A stretch of DNA of 64,000 nucleotides from an uncultured Acidobacteriota bacterium (GTDB lineage: Bacteria > Acidobacteriota > Thermoanaerobaculia > Multivoradales > UBA5704). The stretch is from assembly GCA_963770895.1 (NCBI GenBank), contig CAVYRF010000002.1, positions 5,664,001 to 5,728,000 of the forward strand. Reading direction: 5' to 3'. This document shows positions 15,648 to 59,001 of this stretch, one piece after another. How positions within the stretch are numbered: position 1 is the stretch's first letter; every line of letters begins with the position of its first letter. A program made the translations under genes and the position numbers. Under the pieces are notes generated by a model. It was given only the letters and a program-made list of their open reading frames with translations, ran no database searches and was not told the origin of the DNA.

Positions 15648-17561
15648 CTAATGTTGGAGCGCCCATGTCAGGTCAGTGTTGTTCGACGGCGGGTATTGTT
15701 TCAGGTATTCCTGCGGAATCCTTGCCAGCTCGGCTCTCACATCTGCCGTGGTGTGAGGCCCTCCGGCGCGCGCGATGACGGCCAACGCCGTCGCCTTGAG
15801 ATAGCGTGTACGGTTGAGGTCCGCCGATTCACTATTGAACCAGCGCTCGGTCTCGCGATCGCCTTCATTGTTGTCGCGAGCTGCCAGCTTGGAGATCTCC
15901 GCCATGATCCCCAGGGCAGAGTCCAGCTCCTGGAGCGCCAAGGTTGCGTATCGTAGCCGAGAGCGATCGTTCTCCGGGTTCGGCCTGTCTTGCACCAGGA
16001 AGGTGCGGGCGACCAGCAGCAGCGCCCAGCCTTTGTATTCGCGTTGAATGATTCGCCTGGGAGGCGTGAGACGGATACTGTTCACGCTGTCGATCCGAGT
16101 GGCAAGGCTTTCGCCCTCCTGCCGCACATGTTCAGGCCAACCCGGATTGGCTGCTTCGAAGTCGCCGCGAAGAACCTGGATATCCTTCATATAGGAGATC
16201 ACACGGTAGTCCTCGGCGGTCTTTTTCAGGTAGTCAGACTGGGTCCGATACAGCCCGATGATCAGCGCGGCACTGACCACGGCGAGCCCTGCCACCGCCC
16301 AGATCAGGCCGCGCCGTCTCAGTTGATCGCGCCTGCGCACCCGGCTCTCGAGCACGATCGGCGTCATGACTTCGTGGATCAGCTCCACCTGTGTCTGGTG
16401 GAAACGTTCTTCGAAGCGCAGGAGCCTGCGATCGACCAGCCGGTCCAGCGCTTCGCGGGTCACGCCCTGACTGCCCACCGCTTCCGCCAGGAACACGCTG
16501 GCCGGGTTACCGGCAGGGGTGACCATGCGGCTTTCGATGAGTGAGCGCACCGGCCTGCCGGAATCCACCAGGCAACGTTCATAAAAGGCTGCCAGGATCT
16601 CGTGCGAAGAGCTCAGCACCAGGTTGGAGCTGATCGTCTCCAGCCGCTGCAACTTGCGCCGGCTGTTGAGCTCACGGCAGAAAAGGCTCAGGATCGCCGG
16701 TTCGATCTCCAGCGTTTGCCGGTCGTTGGCCGTGTCCAGCTGTACGTCCTGCCGCCTTCCGGCGACGACCTTGAGGATCTCGGATGCCGCCTGCCGGTCG
16801 ACCAGGCCGATGCGCGGTTTCAGGATGGCATCCAGCGCCTGGTCGCCATTCATGGGCAGCAGGCGATATCGATTTTGCATCAGCGACGGCATGCGCGCCT
16901 GCAACTCGACGAGGTCGGCCAGGAAGTCTTCGCGCAGGCACAGCAGCACGCGCACCTTCTGCCGGTCGAATGGGAAGTCCAGGTCCTGGTCGGTCCGCTC
17001 CACTCGTTCGCGCACCGCTTGGGGGACCTGGTTTTCGATCAGATCCGCCAGCTCGACAAGGAACGAATCGACCCCGCCGGCATACTGCCTGCCGTGGGTG
17101 AAGATCTCTTCGAACGGGTCGAAGACCAGGAGCGGTGTCAACAGCCGATTGCGGCGATCGAAAAACGGAGTGCGGTGGAAGTACTCCCAAAGCGTCTGGT
17201 CGGCGGCCAGCGGCGGCACCTCGACGTCGTGCTCACTGGCAGCCTTGCCACAGGCGGCGCCGACCTGCGCGACGAGGCCCCGGTCGGCGGTGAAGTCCAG
17301 CCGGACCGGGATCGGCAGGATACCCGCCTGGCGCAGGAGGGGGTAAAGACCGGCGTTGAGCAGCGAGGTCTTGCCCAACCCGGAGCGGCCGAACAGGACG
17401 GTCAGGGTCTCGCGCTGGACCAGGGTGAACAGGTCGCGGCTCTCGCTATCGCGGCCGAAGTAGAAAGCCCGATCGGCCTCGCCAAATGCCTGCAATCCTG
17501 GATAGGGATCTTCGGTGCTGACACCAGGTACGGCAGCGACCTGTGGTCCGGAGGAAGTCAT
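15648..17561 (-). CDS. nSTAND1-like STAND NTPase with a single TM helix and C-terminal helical domain
   Basis: PYPGLQAF..FYFGRD, Walker A GRSGLGKTS, Walker B LLVFDPFEE, LREDFL, ELIHE; TM LIWAVAGLAVVSAALIIGLY. ATG at 17561 overlaps the upstream stop (ATGA). Confidence 0.85.
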   Translation of the reverse strand: MTSSGPQVAAVPGVSTEDPYPGLQAFGEADRAFYFGRDSESRDLFTLVQRETLTVLFGRSGLGKTSLLNAGLYPLLRQAGILPIPVRLDFTADRGLVAQVGAACGKAASEHDVEVPPLAADQTLWEYFHRTPFFDRRNRLLTPLLVFDPFEEIFTHGRQYAGGVDSFLVELADLIENQVPQAVRERVERTDQDLDFPFDRQKVRVLLCLREDFLADLVELQARMPSLMQNRYRLLPMNGDQALDAILKPRIGLVDRQAASEILKVVAGRRQDVQLDTANDRQTLEIEPAILSLFCRELNSRRKLQRLETISSNLVLSSSHEILAAFYERCLVDSGRPVRSLIESRMVTPAGNPASVFLAEAVGSQGVTREALDRLVDRRLLRFEERFHQTQVELIHEVMTPIVLESRVRRRDQLRRRGLIWAVAGLAVVSAALIIGLYRTQSDYLKKTAEDYRVISYMKDIQVLRGDFEAANPGWPEHVRQEGESLATRIDSVNSIRLTPPRRIIQREYKGWALLLVARTFLVQDRPNPENDRSRLRYATLALQELDSALGIMAEISKLAARDNNEGDRETERWFNSESADLNRTRYLKATALAVIARAGGPHTTADVRAELARIPQEYLKQYPPSNNTDLTWALQH

Positions 17562-18937
17562 GAGAACCCCCGGCTCCTCAGCTGCCGAGCTTTGATCGCC
17601 TCTTTGACCTGCTGGATGAAGTCCTGTGTGGGGCGGCCCTGCGGCGCAACGTGCCATTGAAGATCGTGGAACTCTTTGGGAATTCCGTTTGCCCCCTGCT
17701 CAATGTCGTCGATGGCGACGGGTAGGATGAATCGAGCCTCAGGGTCGACACCGCGATTCAGAGCCGATTTCCACTCGTTTCGATAGTGGCCTTCGTCGCG
17801 CCGGGCGGCCTCTTTCGACAGAAGCGGCAGGAACAGCGCACAGTCCGCAATGCGGCTCGGTATGGTGAGCGGCCACGCGTCACCTGTCGGCAGGCTATGT
17901 CTGTCCATCCACACTTCAACATTCTGGCTCACCAGAGCGGTGTACAGATTCTGTGCCGCCACCAGGTCCTCATTGGCATAGCTGAGGAACACCTTATTGC
18001 CTGCGGTCCGGCCGCCGCCGCTCGCCGCGCCGGGCGCAGACCCCGGTATGGGCGACGAGCCGCGCGGGCTCTCCTGCTGCCAGCGCGCGTAGAGCTCTGC
18101 GACGAAGGGCACCGGGTCGCCTGCGGGATGCGTCTCGATCCTGCACTGCCGCAAGAAGAGAGCGAGATCGAGATCGAGCTTGGCGCGGTGGTCGATCACG
18201 AATTTGGGTTCTTCCGAGGATAGAGGGCGATTGACCAGCATGCGCAGGAAACACCGTGCCAGCCCGTCGGGGAAGCCGCAACCGAGAAACAGCAAGGTGC
18301 GGTTCCGCAGCGCTTCGAACAGCGCAGGCAGCGTGCTTTCGCGCCGGTGCAGAGCATGCAGGAACTCCAGCGCGTCTTCCTCGGTGACCACATAGCCGCC
18401 CAGGCGGGAGATCCGGCCCAGGATCTGGAACACCTGGGCGTGCTCCAGGGCCCCGGGGGCACCGGAGAGGTCTTCGCGCGCCGAAGAGGTGGAGAAGCTC
18501 AACCTGCGGGTCTGCGGTTTGCCGCCGTAGCGCTCGCCGTCGATGGCGTTGGCGAGGAGCTCGTCGAAGGTGGTGCTGATGAAGAGCCGGAAGTCTGAGA
18601 TCGCGGCAAGTTGACGCAGCGGCTCGGGAACCGGCCACGTCCGTTCCTCCACCAGGCCCCGCAGGGTGGAATGCAGTTTGCGTCGAAGACCGCCTTGCTG
18701 CAGATAGGCGACCGCCACCTGGTTGAGGTCGACTGAAAACGGGAGTCCCGTGGTGTCGATGCTCAAGTCTCTCACCAGGCGCTGCGCGAGGTAGGGATCG
18801 AGGAGGGTCTGCTGTCCATCGATCGAGACGGTAAGGAGCTCCTTGCCGACGATCGGGACCACCTCACCGTCGCGGACCAGCTGCAAAAGGCCGGCCCAAT
18901 CGAAGGCTTGGCTCAGCGCCGAAGGCTCTCCGGTCAC
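17558..18937 (-). CDS. SIR2-like domain plus C-terminal TIR domain protein
   Basis: VVPIVG, FISTTFDELL and TLLFLGCGF (SIR2_2-like); KVFLSYANED..VWMDR..GDAW..YRNEW..FILPVAID (TIR). Start is uncertain (GTG 18937 or 18970). Confidence 0.8.
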   Translation of the reverse strand: MTGEPSALSQAFDWAGLLQLVRDGEVVPIVGKELLTVSIDGQQTLLDPYLAQRLVRDLSIDTTGLPFSVDLNQVAVAYLQQGGLRRKLHSTLRGLVEERTWPVPEPLRQLAAISDFRLFISTTFDELLANAIDGERYGGKPQTRRLSFSTSSAREDLSGAPGALEHAQVFQILGRISRLGGYVVTEEDALEFLHALHRRESTLPALFEALRNRTLLFLGCGFPDGLARCFLRMLVNRPLSSEEPKFVIDHRAKLDLDLALFLRQCRIETHPAGDPVPFVAELYARWQQESPRGSSPIPGSAPGAASGGGRTAGNKVFLSYANEDLVAAQNLYTALVSQNVEVWMDRHSLPTGDAWPLTIPSRIADCALFLPLLSKEAARRDEGHYRNEWKSALNRGVDPEARFILPVAIDDIEQGANGIPKEFHDLQWHVAPQGRPTQDFIQQVKEAIKARQLRSRGFS

Positions 18938-19456
18938 GTCATCGGTCCGCTTCTCTCCGCTCGAGGTCACCGTCGAATTTTTACAGTATATTTGCAATTC
19001 TAGCAGGCTGCGGCGACCGTTGGAAGAGCGCGCGGTCCGATCGGCAGGCTCCCAGGAGCGGGCGGAGGAGGCGCGCGCCGGGGACGGATGACTCCCCTTG
19101 CGTCCACCTACCCGCGGTGTGCATGGCGGACCCAGGCAGCTCGCGGCGTCGCGGTCCAGGAGCGCCAAAGCACCCCCATCTAAAGAGGCGACTGCACAAT
19201 GGCACGGCGGATCGATGCAGTGCGGTGCGTAAGTGCATGAGTGCATGAGGTTGACAGAAGAAACTGAAGCAACTAACATCCGGCAGTTTACCCACACACT
19301 TCGCCGTGTTCACCACCTTCGCCCCCGGCTCAACCAGAACCCGCGCCAGCGTGTCGAAGGAAGAAGTGTGCCTGATGCTTGCGCCAGGATAGGCCATAAG
19401 GGTATGCATGTATACTTTGGTGCCCAGGGTTCGCGGCGAGGTCGGGACGGTAGTTC

Positions 19457-19508: not shown

Positions 19509-19664
19509 ATGTCCAATGCATTCAAGGCGGTCCTGCTGCTCCTGGGTTTGGCCGGGCTTTTCGCCTTTGGCCTCTCTGCCCAAACCGACACGAACGCAAA
19601 TGAGAGGGCGCATTCTCCGCACACCAGCCAGGATCCGAACGGCGGCAATGGCGGTCCCCTCTAG
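19509..19664 (+). CDS. 51-aa secreted peptide with DPNGG motif (not in the ORF track)
   Basis: MSNAFKAVLLLLGLAGLFAFGLSA|QTDTNANERAHSPHTSQDPNGGNGGPL*. Perfect SD AAGGAGGT at 19492-19499; Sec-type signal peptide. Confidence 0.75.
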   Translation: MSNAFKAVLLLLGLAGLFAFGLSAQTDTNANERAHSPHTSQDPNGGNGGPL

Positions 19665-49959: not shown

Positions 49960-52350
49960 GTGCGCGTCCGCATCAACCGCTACGTCATCACTGAGATCTT
50001 CGGGCCGATGGGCCTTGGGTTCCTAGTCTATACCTTCATCCTGCTGCTCCGATTCCTGTTCCAGTCGGCCGAGATGATCATCCGGCGGGGGCTGCCGGTC
50101 TCCGTGGTGGGCAAGCTCCTGCTGGTGACGCTGCCCAACATCGTGGTCTTGACGCTGCCGATGTCGCTGCTGTTCGGCATCCTGATCGCGGTCGGCCGCC
50201 TTTCGTCGGATAGCGAGCTGACGGCGATGCGCTCGTGCGGCATCAGCCTGGCGTCGCTCTACCGCCCGGTCCTGCTGGTGTCCGGCGTCTTCACCATCTT
50301 GAACGCTCTGCTGATGATCTACGTGCTGCCCTGGGGCAACCACGCGCTGCAGGAGCTGCGGCTGGAGATTCTGACCCAGACCATGTCGCAGCAGGTCGAG
50401 CCGCGGGTCTTCTACCAGGAGTGGGTCGGCAAGTCGATCTACGTGTTCGAGGCTCCCCCGCCGGGCCGGCGCTGGAAGGGCGTCTTCCTGGCCGAGACGG
50501 ACCCCAATACCACCAAGAGCCAGATCACGGTGGCGGATTGGGGCGAGATCAAGGTCGATCCGACCGGCGAGCATGTCGTGCTGTCGCTGACCAACGCGGT
50601 CCGGCACACGGTCGATCTCAACCGTCCTTCGAGCTACGAGATCAGCCGCCACAAGGAGCTGAGCGTCGTCCTGGAGGACCAGTTCACCAGCGAGCAGAAG
50701 GCGAAGATGGCGGCTTCGAAGGGGGTGCGCGAGCTGAGCATGGCAGAGCTGCGCCGCCTGAACCGCAACCGCAACGCTCCCTCCGAGGCGCGCAACCTGG
50801 CCCTGGTGGAGCTCCACAAGAAGTTCTCCATTCCGTTTGCCTGCATGGTGTTCGGCCTGTTCGCCCTGCCTCTGGGGATCAACAATCGCCGCGGCGGCAA
50901 GACCTCGGGGTTTGCCATCTCGATCGGCATCATCGTCGTCTACTACATCATGCTCAACAACGGCGAGGAGGGGGCGCGCTTCGGCAAGTTCCCGCCGTGG
51001 CTTGCGATGTGGATGCCCAACATCCTGCTGACCGTCATCGGTATCTTCATCCTCATCCGCCGCAACGCCGACAAGGGGCTGCTGATCGGCCGCCTGGACC
51101 GCTGGGTGCGCACCGACCTGTGGAGCCGCCTGGCGTGGCTCAAACGCAAGCGGTCCGAGCCGCGGCAGGAGCGGCCGCCGGGCGAGGAGCGCCGCCAGCG
51201 CGCCAGGGCTCCCGCCGCGGGGCCGCGGCTGCTGCTGCGGCTGCCCCGCCTGCGCATCACGTTTCCCAGCCTGCTGGACCGCTACGTGGCATCGGCGTTC
51301 GCGCGGGTCTTCGTGCTGGTCCTGCTGTCGGGCGTGACGATCTTTGTGATCTTCGACCTGACCGAGCGGCTGGACGACATCATCAAGAACAAGGTCGCCC
51401 TGTCGCTGGTCATGAAGTACTACAAGTACCTGTCCATTCAGATCGTGTACCAGATCTCGCCGATCGTGGTGCTGGTGACGACGCTCATGACGTTCGCCCT
51501 GCTCAGCCGCACCAGCGAGATCGTCGCCTGCAAGGCGCTCGGCATCAGCCTGTACCGTCTGTCGCTGCCGGCGCTGGTGGCGGCCCTCCTGATCACGGGC
51601 TTTTCGGGGTACCTGGAGTCCGGCAAGATCCTGGCCGCCGCCAACGAGAAGGTCGCCCAGACCAAGGACCGCATCCAGGGGCGCACCGAAACCCGCTCGT
51701 ACCGGCGCGCCGATCGCCAGTGGCTGTTCGGCCAGGGCCGCTACATCTACAACTACCTCAACTACGACTCCGGCACGACCAGCCTGCAGCGCTTGCAGGT
51801 GTTCGATTTCGATCCGGCGCACCACCTGATCCGCCGCCTGTTCACCGAGAAGGCCAGCTACGTCGGGGACGCCTGGGTGTTCACCAAGGGCTGGGCGCGC
51901 ACCTTCGGGGGCAACTTCCGCATCCGCTACGAACCCTTCGACCAGCCGCGCATCGTGCGCTATCCCGAGACGCCGGCGTACTTCAACTCCGAGATCAAGC
52001 CTCCCGACGAGATGGGCTACCACGAGCTGCAGGACTACATCGACGAGATGGCCGAGAGCGGGCAGCCCGAGCCCGAGCTGCTGGTCAGCCTCTACCAGAA
52101 GGTCGCCTATCCGGTGATCTCCCTGGTCATGGCGCTGGTGGCCCTGCCCTTCGCCTTCCGCCTGGGACGGCAGGGGGCGCTCTACGGAATCGGCCTGTCG
52201 GTGATCCTGGGCTTCGTCTTCATGGCGATCTACGCCTTCTTCACCAAGATCGGCGAAGCCGGCGCGCTCCCGGCCCTGATCGCCGTCTGGAGCCCTGGGA
52301 CCGTCTTCGGCATCCTGTCGGTCTACCTGTTCCTGGGCGTCCGCACCTGA
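49960..52350 (+). CDS. Fused LptF-LptG LPS export permease
   Basis: Two permease halves: GRLSSDSELTAMRSCGIS and LSRTSEIVACKALGIS; second half starts at LLDRYV. Confidence 0.9.
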   Translation: MRVRINRYVITEIFGPMGLGFLVYTFILLLRFLFQSAEMIIRRGLPVSVVGKLLLVTLPNIVVLTLPMSLLFGILIAVGRLSSDSELTAMRSCGISLASLYRPVLLVSGVFTILNALLMIYVLPWGNHALQELRLEILTQTMSQQVEPRVFYQEWVGKSIYVFEAPPPGRRWKGVFLAETDPNTTKSQITVADWGEIKVDPTGEHVVLSLTNAVRHTVDLNRPSSYEISRHKELSVVLEDQFTSEQKAKMAASKGVRELSMAELRRLNRNRNAPSEARNLALVELHKKFSIPFACMVFGLFALPLGINNRRGGKTSGFAISIGIIVVYYIMLNNGEEGARFGKFPPWLAMWMPNILLTVIGIFILIRRNADKGLLIGRLDRWVRTDLWSRLAWLKRKRSEPRQERPPGEERRQRARAPAAGPRLLLRLPRLRITFPSLLDRYVASAFARVFVLVLLSGVTIFVIFDLTERLDDIIKNKVALSLVMKYYKYLSIQIVYQISPIVVLVTTLMTFALLSRTSEIVACKALGISLYRLSLPALVAALLITGFSGYLESGKILAAANEKVAQTKDRIQGRTETRSYRRADRQWLFGQGRYIYNYLNYDSGTTSLQRLQVFDFDPAHHLIRRLFTEKASYVGDAWVFTKGWARTFGGNFRIRYEPFDQPRIVRYPETPAYFNSEIKPPDEMGYHELQDYIDEMAESGQPEPELLVSLYQKVAYPVISLVMALVALPFAFRLGRQGALYGIGLSVILGFVFMAIYAFFTKIGEAGALPALIAVWSPGTVFGILSVYLFLGVRT

Positions 52351-52537
52351 AGCCCGCGGCGGCCTGACGGCACTCCCCTCCCCCGCTACCCCCTGCGACT
52401 CTGCAGACTACGGAAACCAGGGGGGGCCTTTGGCAGGCCCGGAGCGAGGGACGGAGCTTGGCCGAGCTTTCAGGAAATAGACCGGGACTTGGGGAAAGGC
52501 TCCAAAGAAAGAAGCCCGGAGAGCCTTCAGGTTCAGT

Positions 52538-54553
52538 TCAGGTCTTGCTGGGCGTGAAGCGCATGCTGGGGGCGTTGCGGGCCTGCTGGAGGAAGGAGGA
52601 GACTTCCCGGACCAGGTTGAGGCCGGCCTGGTCGGCGCGGGCGGCGTCGCAGAAGACGAGATAGGCGGCCATGGCTTCGCGGTGCAGCTGGCGCGCCTCG
52701 AAGAAGTTGACCATCTGGTGGGCAAGCAGGCGCATCTCCGCGGTCTTGCCTTGCTGTGCAAGGATGACTGCCAGGTCGAGGCTGGCCAGTGCTGCGTCGT
52801 AGGCGTGGCCGCCTTCGACGAACGCTTCGCTCACTTCGCGGTAGGCTGCTTCGGCCTGGTCCAGGCGATTCATGCCGTGGGCGACCTGGCCTTCGACCCA
52901 GCGCAAGCGCAGCAGGCTCCAGCGGTCGCCCATTTTGAGGTAGAGCGGGCGGGTGTGGAACAGCAGCGCAAACGCCTCCCGCGGACAGCCGTCGGCGAGC
53001 AGGGTGACGATGATGTTGTGGCGCACGGCCAGGAACCAGCGCGCATCCGTCTGCGGATCGATCAGGTTGAGCGCGCGCTGCAGCAGGGCCAACCTGCCTT
53101 TGAGGTCTCCCTGGTGGCCCAGCACGATCGCCTTGAGGTTGAGCGCGCGGCCCAGCAGGCCCCGCTGCCCCAGCCTGCCGTAGATGGCGATGACGCGATC
53201 CAATAGCCGGGCGGACGTTTCGAGCTGCCGCAGCCCCAGGTAGAAGGACGCTTGCAGGTCGAGCACCCGCGCCTTGTCGAGCGGACCGATCGACGGATAC
53301 GCCACCAGCTGTGCCTCCGCCGCTTCGAACGCCTTGCCAGCGCCGTCCATGTCCGTCAGGACGCGCAACGCGTTGCCGAACTGGGCATGGGCGCGAGCGG
53401 CAAGGCCGGCCAGCAGCGCCAGGTCGCCAGCGGGACAGAGGGCGAAGGCATCGTGAGCGCAGTCGCCGTCGATGTCGTCGGCGGTGGTCATTGCAGGGAG
53501 TGCCGCCAACGCCGACGTCGGCAGCGGCTCCGGGCGGTCTTGCCGATCGCGCTGCACCGCTTGCCTTGCCGCGAGGATGCGCCCCGAGATCTCCACCGCC
53601 AGCTGTGCCAGGTGGGCGCTGCCGGTGCCGTCGCGGAAGACTTCGTCGCGGCTGGCGTTGAGCAGCTCTTCGCACAGGAACCGGTCGCTGAAGCGGGCGC
53701 TGTTGCGCACCAGGAGACCCTGCCGCGTCGGCGGATGCTGCATCAACTCTTCGAAGAGCTCGCGCCCACGCCGGCGCGAAGCTTCGATGACCGCTTCGGC
53801 GGGAGTGACGCGAGAGAAGACGCGATCGAGCACCTGATCGTAGGAGGTGTTGTGCGAGGTCGCGGCAGGCTGCGGCGATGGAATCGATGGAGCGTTTGCC
53901 GCACCAGCGGCCGCCAGGCCTGGCCGTCGCCGGATTGGCTCATCCTGCCTGACCAGCGCGGCTCTGGCGCGCGTGGGACCGGTGGCGCCGGTGGCGCCGG
54001 CCGTGCCGTTGACGGCCCGGTCGAGACGCGAGAAGCCACCGCGGCGAACCGACGCAGCTGCGACGCTGCCCAACTCGGCAAAGGCGCGCGGCAGGGCAAG
54101 CGGCCCCGGCGCGCTCAGCGAGCCGGCCGCGGTCAGCGCGGCCATCGCAGTGGTGGCAGCCGTGGCGGTGATCGCGATGTTTGCGACGTTTGCGGGGATC
54201 GCGCTCAACTCAGCCGGCGCTTCGACCGTGCCATCGGCGCCCTGAACTGCAAGGCCGCCTGACAGTTCGAGCACCGCGGCGATTGCCGGCGGGTCGAGGT
54301 TCCACACTTCGCGGGCCTGCGCCTGGCATGGGAGGCACCCTGCCAACAGGTGGCGCAGCACCTGCTGCACTTCCCCCGCGGGGAGGGTCCCCAGCATGAA
54401 ACCGCGCAACGCCTGCACCTGGACGTGCACCGCCAGGTCGACGGCTGGCGCATCTTCGCGGTCAGGCGATGTCGGAGGGGGCGGGGGCGAGGCCAGGAGC
54501 GAGGCCGGCGGCAGGGCCGGGGGCGGTGACGCCAGCTTGGAATCGTCGATCAT
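52538..54553 (-). CDS. Cytoplasmic protein with N-terminal ZAS-like zinc finger and C-terminal TPR-like array
   Basis: H-X24-H-X4-C-X2-C (VHVQ...RHLLAGCLPC); helical repeats GNALRV, ARVLDLQA, GRALNLKA, RHN, LRLRWVEG and DAALASLDLA. No obvious TM. ATGA overlap with the upstream sigma. Confidence 0.8.
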   Translation of the reverse strand: MIDDSKLASPPPALPPASLLASPPPPPTSPDREDAPAVDLAVHVQVQALRGFMLGTLPAGEVQQVLRHLLAGCLPCQAQAREVWNLDPPAIAAVLELSGGLAVQGADGTVEAPAELSAIPANVANIAITATAATTAMAALTAAGSLSAPGPLALPRAFAELGSVAAASVRRGGFSRLDRAVNGTAGATGATGPTRARAALVRQDEPIRRRPGLAAAGAANAPSIPSPQPAATSHNTSYDQVLDRVFSRVTPAEAVIEASRRRGRELFEELMQHPPTRQGLLVRNSARFSDRFLCEELLNASRDEVFRDGTGSAHLAQLAVEISGRILAARQAVQRDRQDRPEPLPTSALAALPAMTTADDIDGDCAHDAFALCPAGDLALLAGLAARAHAQFGNALRVLTDMDGAGKAFEAAEAQLVAYPSIGPLDKARVLDLQASFYLGLRQLETSARLLDRVIAIYGRLGQRGLLGRALNLKAIVLGHQGDLKGRLALLQRALNLIDPQTDARWFLAVRHNIIVTLLADGCPREAFALLFHTRPLYLKMGDRWSLLRLRWVEGQVAHGMNRLDQAEAAYREVSEAFVEGGHAYDAALASLDLAVILAQQGKTAEMRLLAHQMVNFFEARQLHREAMAAYLVFCDAARADQAGLNLVREVSSFLQQARNAPSMRFTPSKT

Positions 54554-55080
54554 GAGGTCTTCTTGCCGGCCATTCCGGTGGCGGTGAGTTGGCGGGTCAG
54601 GGCAGCGAGGCAGCGATTGGTGGTCTTGCTGATGCTGGTGGGGCTGTACCCCAGACGCTTTGCCAGTTCCGGCGGCTCATAGCCCTGGCTGTAGCGCAGC
54701 AGCAACAGGGCGCGGCAGCGGGTCGGCAAACGTTCGATCGCCATGATCAGATCGCGCCGCAGATCGGCGTCTTCCTGCTCGGGAGCCATCGGCTCGGCCA
54801 TGAATTCAAGCACTGCAGCATCGACGGCATCATATAATTTACGGCGATGCTCGCGCCAGTACAGCAGGCACTTATTTCTAAGTGTGCCGATCAGCCATGC
54901 CTCGTGGTCACGGATCGCGTGCCGCTGGTAGACCAGCGCGAGCAAGGCCTGCTGCAGGATGTCTTCGGTGTCCTGCGGGGGAATGCGGTAATGCGCGAAC
55001 AGCGCCTTCATCCGCGGGCGGACGGATTTCAGAAACTGATCGAAGCTGGTTTCGGCTTCAGAGATATCGGCTGCGCTCAT
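54550..55080 (-). CDS. ECF-type sigma-70 factor (paralogue 1)
   Basis: Region 2 DTEDILQQ..EAWLIGTLRNKC; region 4 LPTRCRALLLLRY..ELAKRLG..SIS. Confidence 0.88.
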   Translation of the reverse strand: MSAADISEAETSFDQFLKSVRPRMKALFAHYRIPPQDTEDILQQALLALVYQRHAIRDHEAWLIGTLRNKCLLYWREHRRKLYDAVDAAVLEFMAEPMAPEQEDADLRRDLIMAIERLPTRCRALLLLRYSQGYEPPELAKRLGYSPTSISKTTNRCLAALTRQLTATGMAGKKTS

Positions 55081-55267
55081 AAACAAACACGTCTAAATTG
55101 TGCCCACCATAGCATCTGTGGGGAGCCGTGTCCAGAAGACACAGCTCTCCCCATCTCGACGCGATGCGAACGCCGCAGAGTCTCTTCAAGAGCTACGGGA
55201 CGGCGAGGAGCACCGGGTCGGCGGTCAGCCCACCTCCGCCCTCCCCTCACCGGAGAAGGAGGGGGAA

Positions 55268-55471
55268 CTAGCCGCCGCCGTTGGGGTCCATGCTGATCCC
55301 GAAATCGGAGAACATGTTGGCCAGGCCGTTGATCACGCTGGCCAGCTGCTGCATCAGGCGGGAGCCGGCACTGGCCGCGGTCGGCCGATGGGTGCCGCAG
55401 AACGCGGAAGCAGGGGCGAGGGCGGCGACCAGGGTGACGATGGCAACGGTACGGCGCAAGGAAGTCTTCAT
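55268..55471 (-). CDS. 67-aa secreted peptide ending MDPNGGG
   Basis: AGAGGAG RBS; signal peptide MKTSLRRTVAIVTLVAALAPASA; C-terminus SDFGISMDPNGGG. Confidence 0.8.
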   Translation of the reverse strand: MKTSLRRTVAIVTLVAALAPASAFCGTHRPTAASAGSRLMQQLASVINGLANMFSDFGISMDPNGGG

Positions 55472-55520
55472 GACTTGATACTCCTCTGGGGTTTCCCGAC
55501 GCTTCAGGCGCCGGTAAATA

Positions 55521-55545
55521 GCAATCTAGCTCTAAGCTACGTTGC
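55521..55545. promoter_or_regulatory. Imperfect palindrome upstream of the peptide gene (candidate operator)
   Basis: GCAA-TC-TAGCT-CTA-AGCTA-CG-TTGC. Confidence 0.35.
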
Positions 55546-56085
55546 CGCTGGACCATCCGGAGAGACAGACATGTGGTCACAGCCTGGTGGCCAAGCGTCG
55601 CCAGCCCTGGCCCGACGCGCCGTCCACCGCCACAAGCTACCCTCCTTGCAAGCCGAAGACCTGATCCTGCAATGGTTTGCAAGAGGCAAGGCGCTCCAGA
55701 AGGGTTTGCGGGCGGCGAGGCGCGCTCTGGGGGAGGCTTGGCGGGCGCTACCGGGCTCGCGAACCGAGAACGCCGACGGCGCCAATCGGCATGCTGGTCC
55801 CGTTCGGCCTGCGGTTCAACGGGCTGGCGGCCAAGGTGAACCACCTGGCGCTGCTTGTGGTCGTAGCCATGGACTTCCGCATCGAGTTTCGCGACGTGCC
55901 GGTGACGTGACCACCCTGACAGGGCGCCCCTGGCGCACCGCTCACAGGCACAGTGATCGCCGGCGGGCGCGGCAGCGTGCCAGCGAACGATCGGCTGATC
56001 TACGGATTTTGGTCAGGCGGAAAGCGCAGACTCGCCCCTACAGGCCCATTGAGGGTCTGGATCGTAGGGGCGAGGCACCGCGGGT

Positions 56086-56649
56086 CTAGTCGTCCTTGAG
56101 AGCGGCTTCCGGCTGCGAATGGAAGCGTGCCCCAAGGAGGCGCTCTGAGAGCGCGGCGAGACAACGATGGGTCACCTTGCGAATGCTCGACTGGCGATAG
56201 CCCGTCCGTTCGGCGGCCTCGGCGGTGCTGCAGCCCAGCCCATAACGCAGGCGCAGGACCGAACGACAACGGTCCGGGAGCTGGGACAGCAGGGTGTCGA
56301 GATCGGCGCGAAGATCGGAACGATCCTGGGCGGGCGTTTCTGCCTCGGCCAGGAGCTCCAGGATGGTGCTGTCCACCAGGTCCCAGAGACGGCTGCGATG
56401 CTTTCGCCAGTAGATGATGCAGCGGTTGGCCAGCGTTGCCAGCAGCCACGCTTCGGGATTACGGATGCTGCCTGACTTCGAGACCATGATCAGGAAGGTC
56501 TCTTGCAGGAGGTCGTCCGCGTCCTGAAGCGGGATGCGATGGCGCCACAATACCCTCTTCAGCTTCGGCTCTACGTTGTGGAGGATCTGCTCCAGAGAGG
56601 GCTCCTCCACAGGTGGCACTTGGTAGCTCATGCTAGTAGTGAAAACCAT
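56086..56649 (-). CDS. ECF-type sigma-70 factor (paralogue 2)
   Basis: DADDLLQE..EAWLLATLANRC..YWRK; LPDRCRSVLRLRY..SSIRKVTHRCL. Start is 56649 or 56631. Confidence 0.88.
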   Translation of the reverse strand: MVFTTSMSYQVPPVEEPSLEQILHNVEPKLKRVLWRHRIPLQDADDLLQETFLIMVSKSGSIRNPEAWLLATLANRCIIYWRKHRSRLWDLVDSTILELLAEAETPAQDRSDLRADLDTLLSQLPDRCRSVLRLRYGLGCSTAEAAERTGYRQSSIRKVTHRCLAALSERLLGARFHSQPEAALKDD

Positions 56650-56817
56650 CTATACATGAAAATGTACCAAGGTTTTCCCTCCAATGTCTAGGGGGACGCT
56701 CCGACAGGATCGTAACACTTTGTTGGCAGCTCTGGGCGACCCGACGCCGGGGCGCGAGGGATGCGCAGGATGCCGCATCGGGAATCGTCGCTGAGGCAGC
56801 TTTTGCGGCGATCGGAG

Positions 56818-57342
56818 TCATGGCTTCCGCTCGTAGCCGACGGCCAGCAGCTGGCGGGTCAAGGCTGCCAGGCACCGGTTGGTCACCTTGCGGATGCTGG
56901 ACGACCGGTAGCCCATCCGCTCCGCCACTTCGTTGGGTCCGTACCCCAGGCCGTACCGCAGGCACAGCAGCGAGCGGCAGCGGGTCGACAGCCGCGACAG
57001 CACGCGATTGAGGTCGAGCGTCAGGTCGTCTTTCTCCTGACGCGGCGCCTCGGGGGTCGAGATCAGATCCAGGATGGCGGCATCCACCGCCTCGCAAAGG
57101 CTGCCCCGCCGTTTGCGCCAGTACATGATGCACTTCTTCTTGACAGTGCCGACCAGCCAGTTCTCGGGGCTGTGGATCTTTTCCCATTTGTAGAGCAGCG
57201 TCAGCTGGGCATCCTGCAAGATGTCTTCGGCGTCTTCGGGCGGAATCTCAAACCCCCGCAGCACCCGCTCCAAACGCGGACGAGTGCTCTTGAGGAGGTT
57301 ATTGAGCGATTCCCGCAGCTCTGGATGGTCCAGGGTCGTCAT
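56818..57342 (-). CDS. ECF-type sigma-70 factor (paralogue 3)
   Basis: DAEDILQD..ENWLVGTVKKKC..YWRK; LSTRCRSLLCLRY..SSIRKVTNRCL. Confidence 0.88.
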   Translation of the reverse strand: MTTLDHPELRESLNNLLKSTRPRLERVLRGFEIPPEDAEDILQDAQLTLLYKWEKIHSPENWLVGTVKKKCIMYWRKRRGSLCEAVDAAILDLISTPEAPRQEKDDLTLDLNRVLSRLSTRCRSLLCLRYGLGYGPNEVAERMGYRSSSIRKVTNRCLAALTRQLLAVGYERKP

Positions 57343-57717
57343 GTCACCCTAAATCTGAGTCTTCGTGCATTGGTAGGCTAACACCTGCATCGCACCCTTG
57401 TCTACCTTTTTGAGGCCTCACGGCCACCAAGTAGCCGCTTTTTTGGGTCACGTCGGGCCACTGGCCGTCGCACCTGGGCTCCGAAACTGGATGCCCTTAG
57501 GGGTTAACCCGATCGACGGGTGTGACAACTGCTCCTTGGGTGACCAGCGGCGGCGCCGTCCTGGCGACGGGCAGCCACCGCGTGGTCCGGGCGCGGCGGG
57601 GACCGCCAGCGGCTGCGTGGGCTCCCCCGGGGCGCTTCCACGACGGCCCCGAGGCGCGCACACCGCGGGGCCGTCTCTGCTGCGATGCCCGCCGCCCTGC
57701 GGCGGCGAGCCGCTGGA

Positions 57718-59001
<1,284 letters not shown>

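Follow-up and report, generated by a model that had tools for sequence, protein, structure and literature searches.

What is the role of a gene cluster in which three paralogous sigma factor genes, a small gene for a putative secreted peptide, and the gene of a 671-aa protein with tetratricopeptide repeats (TPR) lie together on one strand? The question is raised by contig CAVYRF010000002.1 of an uncultured Acidobacteriota bacterium, of which a stretch of 64 kb was analyzed (the window; all coordinates given here are positions in the whole window). The answer proposed is that the cluster is a variant of the module formed by a sigma factor of extracytoplasmic function (ECF) and its anti-sigma factor, with the peptide as a dedicated secreted product, a joint reading to which we assign a probability of about 0.5. 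The cluster represents a regulatory module encoded on the chromosome and confined to a single lineage, the Thermoanaerobaculia/Holophagales of the Acidobacteriota. An earlier, sequence-only reading of this DNA had reported five co-oriented genes, with sigma1 joined by an ATGA overlap to the gene of the 671-aa protein; both the arrangement and the overlap were confirmed, with all five genes on the minus strand, at the following coordinates:

56818..57342, minus strand: sigma3, an ECF sigma factor of 174 aa (open reading frame (ORF) list, Pfam, and TIGR02937)
56086..56649, minus strand: sigma2, an ECF sigma factor of 187 aa without an adjacent anti-sigma factor (Pfam and TIGR02937)
55572..56085, minus strand: spacer of ~515 bp between sigma2 and the upstream motif of the peptide gene
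55541..55567, minus strand: bipartite motif TGTCTC-N13-GCGGCAAC, 69 nt 5' of the peptide ATG
55268..55471, minus strand: putative exported pre-peptide of 67 aa, ending in ...SDFGISMDPNGGG (profile E=1.8e-17)
55106..55134, minus strand: site resembling a housekeeping-type promoter, TGGACA-17-TATGGT with TG before the second hexamer, located before sigma1
54550..55086, minus strand: sigma1, an ECF sigma factor of 178 aa counted from TTG (Pfam and TIGR02937)
52538..54553, minus strand: 671-aa putative anti-sigma/TPR protein (ORF list)
54290..54433, minus strand: predicted anti-sigma domain, spanning about residues 41-88 in the 671-aa protein (AlphaFold2 and profile)
53891..54289, minus strand: low-complexity Ala/Pro/Thr-rich linker, residues 89-221, predicted to be disordered (predicted local distance difference test (pLDDT) <50)
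52574..53860, minus strand: predicted TPR superhelix, residues 232-658, the presumed sensor/regulatory domain (pLDDT >90)
52512..52526, minus strand: terminator-like hairpin directly 3' of the anti-sigma gene (consensus match only)

The 671-aa protein matched no NCBIfam model, and Pfam gave only TPR matches below the gathering score (TPR_16, 21.1 bits; TPR_12, 19.6 bits), yet the AlphaFold2 model, based on a 53-row alignment (mean pLDDT 76.5), showed three parts: a confident N-terminal three-helix domain (residues 46-83, pLDDT about 93), the linker, and a confident all-helical solenoid of ~430 aa (residues 232-658), which bears out the TPR-like array proposed from the letters of the sequence. 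The Ala/Pro/Thr-rich linker (residues 89-221) is missing from most orthologs, which measure about 458 aa. The homolog set comprised 53 sequences including the window's own; names identify the taxon of five of them, as Thermoanaerobaculia or Acidobacteria, and the others are unnamed or called just 'TPR repeat protein'.

Four positions of the N-terminal domain, H6, H31, C36, and C39 (H43, H68, C73, and C76 in the window), are invariant in 53/53 aligned domains, and the zinc motif of the window reads H-x4-C-x2-C (RHLLAGCLPC). When a profile of this domain was compared with the PDB, the five best sequences were all anti-sigma domains, with matches to DdvA (E=7.4e-5; 0.0032 for the full-length chain), RslA (0.0066), and ChrR (0.017 and 0.018); HMMER aligned the domain to DdvA and RslA with a one-residue gap. 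Modeled alone, the domain formed a predicted three-helix bundle (pLDDT 86.6), and the top 10 Foldseek matches of this model were all zinc anti-sigma domains (RslA, ChrR, RsiW). The commonest weak Pfam match was zf-HC2, found in 30 of the 53 members and below threshold in all of them (best 0.0019). Judged by the four ligands, the profile kinship, and the predicted helical bundle, the N-terminal domain belongs to the zinc-class anti-sigma domains. The sequence-only reading had suggested an anti-sigma function from the motif, and this suggestion is strengthened by the profile matches to solved anti-sigma domains, by the bundle, and by the coupling to an ECF sigma factor: the ATGA overlap joins the sigma1 stop codon to the start of the 671-aa gene, and translational coupling of the anti-sigma domain protein to an ECF sigma was seen in the window and in relatives. 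Hydropathy analysis of 90 paralogs revealed no membrane-type hydrophobic segment; three of the 90 exceed a Kyte-Doolittle value of 1.6, and the segments concerned are a Pro-rich linker or TPR helices. The 671-aa protein, which the sequence-only reading had already called soluble, is therefore taken as a soluble, cytoplasmic anti-sigma factor with two domains in the manner of ChrR, the second of them a predicted TPR solenoid.

The three sigma factors all belong to the ECF (group IV) sigma-70 factors, which measure about 170-200 aa and consist of sigma2 and sigma4 domains only. Pfam Sigma70_r2 lies above the gathering score in all three, the Pfam r4 model does so in sigma1 and sigma2 (20.6 bits vs 24.1 in sigma3), and the ECF model TIGR02937, with a cut-off of 42.9 bits, scored 58.0 for sigma3, 69.7 for sigma2, and 63.0 for sigma1. 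None of them reached the cut-off of an NCBIfam subfamily or equivalog model (best TIGR02983, 71.2 bits vs 141.55). The paralogs share 47-51% identity, with sigma2 at 47-48% to both sigma1 and sigma3, and their region-4 helices are near-identical, which fits a common target motif for the three sigmas. For sigma1, the ATG at 55080 is a likelier start than the TTG.

A scan of species-representative genomes yielded 53 loci, all of them in Thermoanaerobaculia, Holophagales, or unclassified Acidobacteriota metagenome-assembled genomes. The recurrent gene order is sigma3 - [TPR_A] - sigma2 - small ORF - sigma1 - TPR_B - [TPR_C], where TPR_B corresponds to the 671-aa protein. TPR_A overlaps or abuts sigma3 and would be, in most relatives, an anti-sigma/TPR protein of sigma3's own. 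The motif HLLxxCxxC is present in 31/31 TPR_A and 42/45 TPR_B sequences and in 0/14 TPR_C sequences, TPR_C being a TPR-only paralog without an anti-sigma domain; each of the three paralogs forms a single clade (supports 99, 99, and 100). The clade of the window, together with L001-L003, L005, and L006, has neither TPR_A nor TPR_C, so that sigma3 and sigma2 stand there without an adjacent anti-sigma factor; L004, which was not included in the paralog tree, shows the same gene order. Compared with loci L007-L049, the window clade has lost TPR_A and TPR_C and gained the long low-complexity linker of TPR_B. A third anti-sigma-like N-terminal domain (HMLTGCPLC) was observed in L025 (146-301), several kb 5' of the cluster. 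In the window, the cluster is flanked by genes of a DUF84 NTPase, MetK, and AdoHcyase on one side and of LptF/LptG, SDR, and PTPS on the other, and the flanks of L039 repeat this order (DUF84 NTPase and MetK; LptF/LptG and PTPS). These shared housekeeping flanks point to a vertically inherited core-genome module, not an island, and none of the five proteins encoded in the cluster was matched by PADLOC.

The small ORF between sigma2 and sigma1 has GGAG 10 nt 5' of its ATG and matched no NCBIfam model. Its product combines a basic n-region (KTSLRR), a hydrophobic core, a possible cleavage site ASA|F, a helix-prone middle part, and the C-terminal unit SMDPNGGG, in which D62 and G65 are conserved in the family alignment; its closest relatives are P0078 (99% identical) and P0081 (58%). 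The 5697 ORFs of the loci were screened for a signal-like N-terminus combined with [hydrophobic]-[DN]-x-[NDE]-G near the C-terminus. The 36 matches comprised 35 ORFs directly 5' of sigma1 and one 5' of sigma3 (in L031), with none elsewhere. A family profile built from these matches detected the gene in 41/53 loci and in the window (E=1.8e-17), with two copies in L031, and the small ORF is thus no chance ORF. Since DNA 5' of sigma1 is missing from four loci, 50 sources could be assessed, and the peptide gene is present 5' of sigma1 in 42 of them; in all 42 it is co-oriented and lies inside the cluster, between sigma2 (or TPR_A) and sigma1. The sequence-only reading, which was to be given up if the peptide gene proved unlinked to such sigma/TPR loci elsewhere, thus finds the linkage repeated. 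In the remaining eight loci sigma2 abuts sigma1, and these loci form a single clade (support 100, one change on the tree). The second copy in L031 (4452-4742) stands 5' of sigma3-TPR_A with a diverged upstream motif, in the only locus of 40 with such a copy; it hints that the peptide-sigma-anti-sigma set may once have been duplicated as a unit.

In members of the family the n-region is basic and usually contains RR, and the hydrophobic core has Pro at its end. Further common features are sites of the AXA type (ASA|F for the window; LSA|A, AGA|E, and AVA|Q for relatives), a basic but variable stretch, a segment prone to form a helix that usually contains Trp, and a unit reading G-x-R-[IMW]-[DN]-x-[NDE]-G. 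The core motif [DN]-x-[NDE]-G occurs in 41/43 peptide ORFs, at the very C-terminus in 22 and 1-2 residues from the end in 10; two or three copies are found in 10 of the 43, and L042 has three copies of an 11-residue unit. After export, the pro-peptide would probably be cut into units ending in [DN]-x-[NDE]-G. Two other interpretations of the N-terminus were rejected. A Tat signal, suggested by the conserved RR, is unsupported, as the window peptide has no NCBIfam match and several members lack twin Arg, and a lipoprotein, suggested by the Cys after ASAF, is contradicted by the Phe at -1, which is unfit for a lipobox.

The family extends well beyond the loci. Database relatives number 29, all annotated as 'hypothetical', and a 50%-identity library holds 795 family clusters at E<=0.001 (106 at <=1e-10), all unnamed. 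Among the 144 best relatives of <=250 aa, 137 have a signal-like start and 133 carry the motif, most often as IDPNG; 2-5 copies are present in 50. In 14 of the 144, the units lie between two Cys (C-x-IDP[ND]G-x-C) and are probable disulfide loops, which suggests that the active form is located outside the cytoplasm. For instance, the unit C-x-IDP[ND]G-x(1-3)-C occurs 3-5 times in P0201, P0168, P0176, P0195, P0209, and P0162, with linkers of 8-20 residues in between. Pfam and NCBIfam yielded only sub-threshold noise for the multi-unit relatives, such as the GCG_CRPN repeat model at 17.8 bits vs 24. A protein of 683 aa, P0211, contains about 13 copies of a ~52-residue unit with a hydrophobic Trp segment and IDIDP[DN]G; no signal peptide is obvious in it, and its NCBIfam/Pfam matches, with 0 accepted stretches, look spurious.

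The control signals of the peptide gene differ from those of the sigma genes. Upstream of the peptide gene stands the family consensus GTC-N16-CGGnAAC, whose two blocks, 16 nt apart, are invariant in 36/36 aligned leaders; by regular expression, the motif lies 63-84 nt 5' of the start codon in 40/43 peptide ORFs. It occurs only once in the 64-kb window, at 55541-55567, and is absent from the sigma genes. RNAalifold detected 0 pairs in 36 peptide leaders, and in view of this lack of a consensus RNA structure the conserved blocks are probably read as DNA. The spacer between the blocks is often palindromic, and the second box, CGGnAAC, resembles the GnAAC -35 box of ECF promoters. The bipartite motif is probably a promoter for an alternative sigma factor; a sigma-54 or ECF-type reading was considered and rejected because no conserved -10 box follows the GnAAC box.

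The sigma genes are preceded by TGGACA-N17-TAnnnT, mostly with TG before the second hexamer (sigma1, 47/50; sigma2, 23/34; sigma3, 39/40). For sigma3 the upstream site TGGACA-N17-TAGCCT was found in 39/40 sources and is unmatched in the window, and sigma2 of the window has a promoter-like TAGACA-18-TACATT at 56690-56661; the whole window contains 2 sites of the TGGACA-N17-TAnnnT type vs 0.37 expected. ECF sigma factors are not known to possess the region that reads an extended -10 TG, and the TG suggests that a housekeeping sigma factor reads the promoters of the sigma genes, although some doubt on this point is left by how strictly TGGACA is conserved and how seldom it occurs elsewhere in the window.

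After the peptide stop codon, 3/41 regions fold with z<-2 and 2/41 contain a run of at least four T. The gap between the peptide gene and sigma1 is free of terminator-like signals in 38/41 cases, so that, with no regular terminator, transcription probably continues from the peptide gene through sigma1 into the anti-sigma gene. The count of hairpins like that at 52512..52526 equals the chance expectation for the region. The spacer at 55572-56085 is unique to the window: blastn matched it neither to any of the 53 loci nor to other parts of the window, Rfam and Pfam gave no match, and the same gap measures about 50-280 bp in other loci. A search of 52000-58000 against Rfam returned only a chance miRNA match (E=0.37).

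These observations can be assembled into a working scheme. Each of the three paralogous ECF sigma factors would have a housekeeping-type promoter of its own, and sigma1 would be co-produced with a soluble cytoplasmic anti-sigma factor, as would sigma3 in most relatives. At rest, the three-helix domain with its H, H, C, C ligands would hold sigma1, and TPR_A would hold sigma3 in most relatives. The TPR solenoid would receive a releasing signal, as a counterpart of the C-terminal sensor domain of ChrR, and the freed sigma factor would transcribe the peptide gene from GTC-N16-CGGnAAC, with read-through into its own operon. It would be most economical if the peptide motif were read by at least one of the three sigmas. 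An outer promoter for an alternative sigma factor would thereby give rise to peptide, sigma1, and anti-sigma factor, and an inner constitutive promoter to sigma1 and anti-sigma factor. The peptide would leave the cell as a Sec-type pre-peptide and would probably be cut into units.

Several points weigh against this scheme. No conserved -10 box is found 16-17 nt 3' of the second box, and the motif might be bound by an unrelated regulator instead. The connection between the sigmas and the motif, like the export and processing of the peptide, is predicted purely from sequence features. The eight peptide-less loci retain the three sigma types and both anti-sigma factors, which indicates that the sigmas need other targets and that the peptide is not the sole output. 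As for the anti-sigma domain, its spacing is H-x4-C-x2-C in all 77 extracted N-terminal domains, window included, and not the canonical H-x3-C-x2-C; the Foldseek E-values of 2.1-4.7 are non-significant for so small a domain, and Pfam zf-HC2 is not matched by the domain of the window protein at E<=1.

In functional terms, the system is closest to ChrR/sigmaE of Rhodobacter sphaeroides (2q1z, 2z2s); by sequence it is closest to the anti-sigma domain of DdvA. ChrR is likewise a soluble two-domain anti-sigma factor co-encoded with an ECF sigma factor, with an N-terminal zinc domain bearing His, His, Cys, Cys and a C-terminal domain thought to receive the signal, and the 25-residue distance between the two His (H43/H68 here) is the same in ChrR. 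However, the C-terminal domain of ChrR is a cupin, in contrast to the ~430-aa TPR solenoid predicted here, and the H-x4-C-x2-C spacing, the three sigma paralogs, the up to three TPR paralogs, and the secreted peptide gene distinguish the present cluster. RsrA, which acts on sigmaR in Streptomyces coelicolor, is also a soluble zinc anti-sigma factor and reportedly senses disulfide stress via its own cysteines, but it is a single small domain without TPR and without a peptide gene. The sigR gene has two promoters, one constitutive and one further upstream, which the layout before sigma1 resembles. DdvA, which pairs with DdvS in Myxococcus xanthus (8rlz, 8rot), is the protein that the anti-sigma domain matches best in sequence (E=7.4e-5); it is described as a transmembrane protein with a periplasmic TPR-CHAT part that controls a CBASS/CRISPR defense island (PMC11506125). 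In contrast, the present protein has no membrane helix and no CHAT match and stands in a housekeeping context without any defense-system match, and in view of the missing PADLOC matches a DdvA-like role in a defense island is not indicated.

TPR is also the regulatory part of the ECF42 system. In the passages of PMC7826278 that deal with it, it appears only as a C-terminal extension of ECF42 sigmas and in the FecR-like anti-sigma factor of ECF267, and soluble anti-sigma factors are counted in 10 ECF groups. The TPR of ECF42 is, in the same passages, fused to the sigma factor with no anti-sigma factor, whereas here it is fused to a predicted class I anti-sigma domain. The sequence-only reading knew of no described system with this layout, and none was found in the literature searched, with supplementary files (possible ECF group tables) outside the scope of the search.

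Which signal would the TPR solenoid receive? The sequence-only reading had proposed a loop after the manner of the RRNPP receptors of Bacillota (Rap/Phr, PlcR/PapR, AimR/AimP), in which the exported units would be re-imported, bind the concave face of the TPR, and alter the hold of the anti-sigma domain, the peptide being output and input at once. In both cases a cytoplasmic TPR-type protein is encoded beside the gene of an exported or putatively exported pro-peptide, here directly 5' of sigma1 and the anti-sigma gene in 42/50 sources and, in L031, also before sigma3 and TPR_A. The conserved part is the C-terminal unit (at the very end in 22/43), which is repeated in 10/43 ORFs and 50/144 relatives, and tandem pheromone units are reported for Phr pro-peptides (PMC11343458). 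The Foldseek matches of the TPR model include LGN/Pins, kinesin light chain, and Rap receptors (4gyo with TMt 0.62, 3ulq, 4i9c, 6t46), of which Rap has been solved with bound peptide, and LGN and kinesin light chain also bind extended peptides. However, the Rap structures score TMt 0.49-0.62 and LGN, kinesin light chain, and designed TPRs score equal or better, so that the modeled likeness to peptide-binding superhelices is a generic resemblance, and no RRNPP receptor was among the sequence-level PDB matches of the TPR at E<=1. A structure look-up with the homolog P0039 returned unnamed TPR clusters together with HTH_3, LuxR, and kinase-TPR look-alikes. In Acidobacteriota, P0039-like TPR folds were seen with HTH_3/HTH_31 N-termini (TM 0.56-0.66), including HTH_3+TPR_12, the classical RRNPP architecture, which speaks for the loop; other look-alikes bear a LuxR-type helix-turn-helix (HTH), Trans_reg_C, or histidine-kinase domains, and, going by these models, TPR sensors of one and the same kind seem to have been joined to several output domains.

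Against such a loop stands the peptide-less clade, whose eight loci keep 64/65 of the TPR_B positions that are >=95% conserved elsewhere (the single change is E295D), as do TPR_A and TPR_C, which have no peptide of their own except in L031. Neither an oligopeptide importer nor a protease is encoded in the cluster or in the flanks examined (window and L039), in line with what had been noted from the sequence, and the organism has an outer membrane, as LptF/LptG indicate. The unit is uniform across the lineage, not diversified into specificity types. On the TPR_B tree, its x position changes 6 times and its hydrophobic position 12 times over 36 tips, too few changes for a co-variation test against ~430 TPR_B columns. 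The probable disulfide loops of the Cys-bracketed relatives would form outside the cytoplasm. Given the lack of detectable sequence kinship and the different output domain (anti-sigma here, HTH or phosphatase fold there), the module falls outside the RRNPP family, but it may work in a similar way. The loop is accordingly a tentative explanation that we hold to be unlikely, and it is doubtful that the circuit is the first peptide-pheromone system of RRNPP logic outside monoderm Bacillota, acting via release or capture of an ECF sigma factor; the RRNPP_detector survey does not use the word 'sigma' in its main text (PMC10075063).

A second alternative, which we rate as decidedly unlikely, makes the peptide gene only a syntenic neighbor. 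The motif would then be read by a regulator or sigma factor encoded elsewhere, and the peptide would have an extracellular role, whether by signaling to a surface receptor, by acting on membranes, or as a turn peptide that binds a metal or calcium, to name some examples. Its loss in one clade without visible effect on the sigma and anti-sigma genes would agree with this, as would the often palindromic spacer of the motif, which is like the sites of dimeric regulators, and the size of the peptide family (795 clusters vs 53 anti-sigma homologs, although these counts come from different methods and are not directly comparable). Moreover, the whole region is one of conserved housekeeping synteny, in which adjacency alone is weak evidence. 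Three observations tie the gene more closely to its neighbors: it is inside the cluster and co-oriented in 42/42 bearing sources, the only extra copy (L031) also adjoins a sigma/anti-sigma pair, and in 38/41 cases there is no terminator-like signal between it and sigma1.

The zinc site itself might be the sensor, by thiol oxidation or for singlet oxygen, with which the ChrR-type HHCC site is reported to react; the TPR would then serve oligomerization or docking, for instance of TPR_C, and the peptide would be one stress-induced product among others. The invariance of the H, H, C, C ligands would suit such a sensor. In ChrR, however, the role of the zinc site is regarded as chiefly structural, and the response requires the C-terminal domain. 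Zinc motifs are enriched among soluble class I anti-sigma domains, which often have a link to redox sensing (PMC7406223), and TPR_C, devoid of an anti-sigma domain, could pair with TPR_A or TPR_B. Nevertheless, a domain of 430 aa with 47 invariant columns among 53 homologs exceeds the needs of a scaffold, and we consider zinc-site sensing highly unlikely.

In a last alternative, which is hardly credible, the C-terminal unit of the pre-peptide would bind the cytoplasmic TPR prior to export or while held at the membrane, with the N-terminal hydrophobic segment still uncleaved or serving as an anchor, and would thereby tether or titrate the anti-sigma factor, for example as a sensor of secretion load. 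This would make re-import unnecessary, and many copies do carry several Arg right after the hydrophobic segment, where such residues can hinder translocation, but the stretch behind the core is less basic than the n-region, AXA-type cleavage sites are conserved, and the Cys-bracketed relatives point to an oxidizing compartment.

Pairs of ECF sigma and anti-sigma factors are among the commonest signaling devices of bacteria. To our knowledge, no signal has been identified for most soluble anti-sigma factors, and the Acidobacteriota have barely been studied experimentally. The module presents a predicted soluble zinc anti-sigma domain fused to a large TPR, in up to three paralogs beside three sigmas, together with an unnamed and widespread family of putatively exported multi-unit peptides with its own invariant control motif, which offers a concrete, testable candidate for peptide signaling in a diderm lineage of soil and sediment. 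If the peptide is only an output, the cluster would still provide a new ECF-controlled secreted product and a promoter motif for regulon mapping; if the loop were true, the 795 clusters of the peptide family, many of them with 2-5 units in tandem or bracketed by Cys, would amount to a large class of acidobacterial signaling peptides that has gone unnoticed.

Two further observations concern other parts of the window. In a lower-GC intergenic stretch before accA, a 51-aa ORF (19509-19664, plus strand) combines a signal-like N-terminus with the C-terminal sequence ...SQDPNGGNGGPL; it was rejected as a member of the peptide family, having no match to the peptide profile at E<=10 and none in Pfam, and may be a chance ORF or a very distant relative. 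Nearby, at 15648-19297 on the minus strand, lie two large adjacent ORFs of 579 aa and 669 aa. A TIR-like domain lies at the C-terminus of the 579-aa protein (best E=8.6e-6 among the PADLOC TIR models), and the 669-aa protein has a P-loop-like segment GRSGLGKTS and a weak match to mad8 (E=0.0011); the two may form an anti-phage defense pair.

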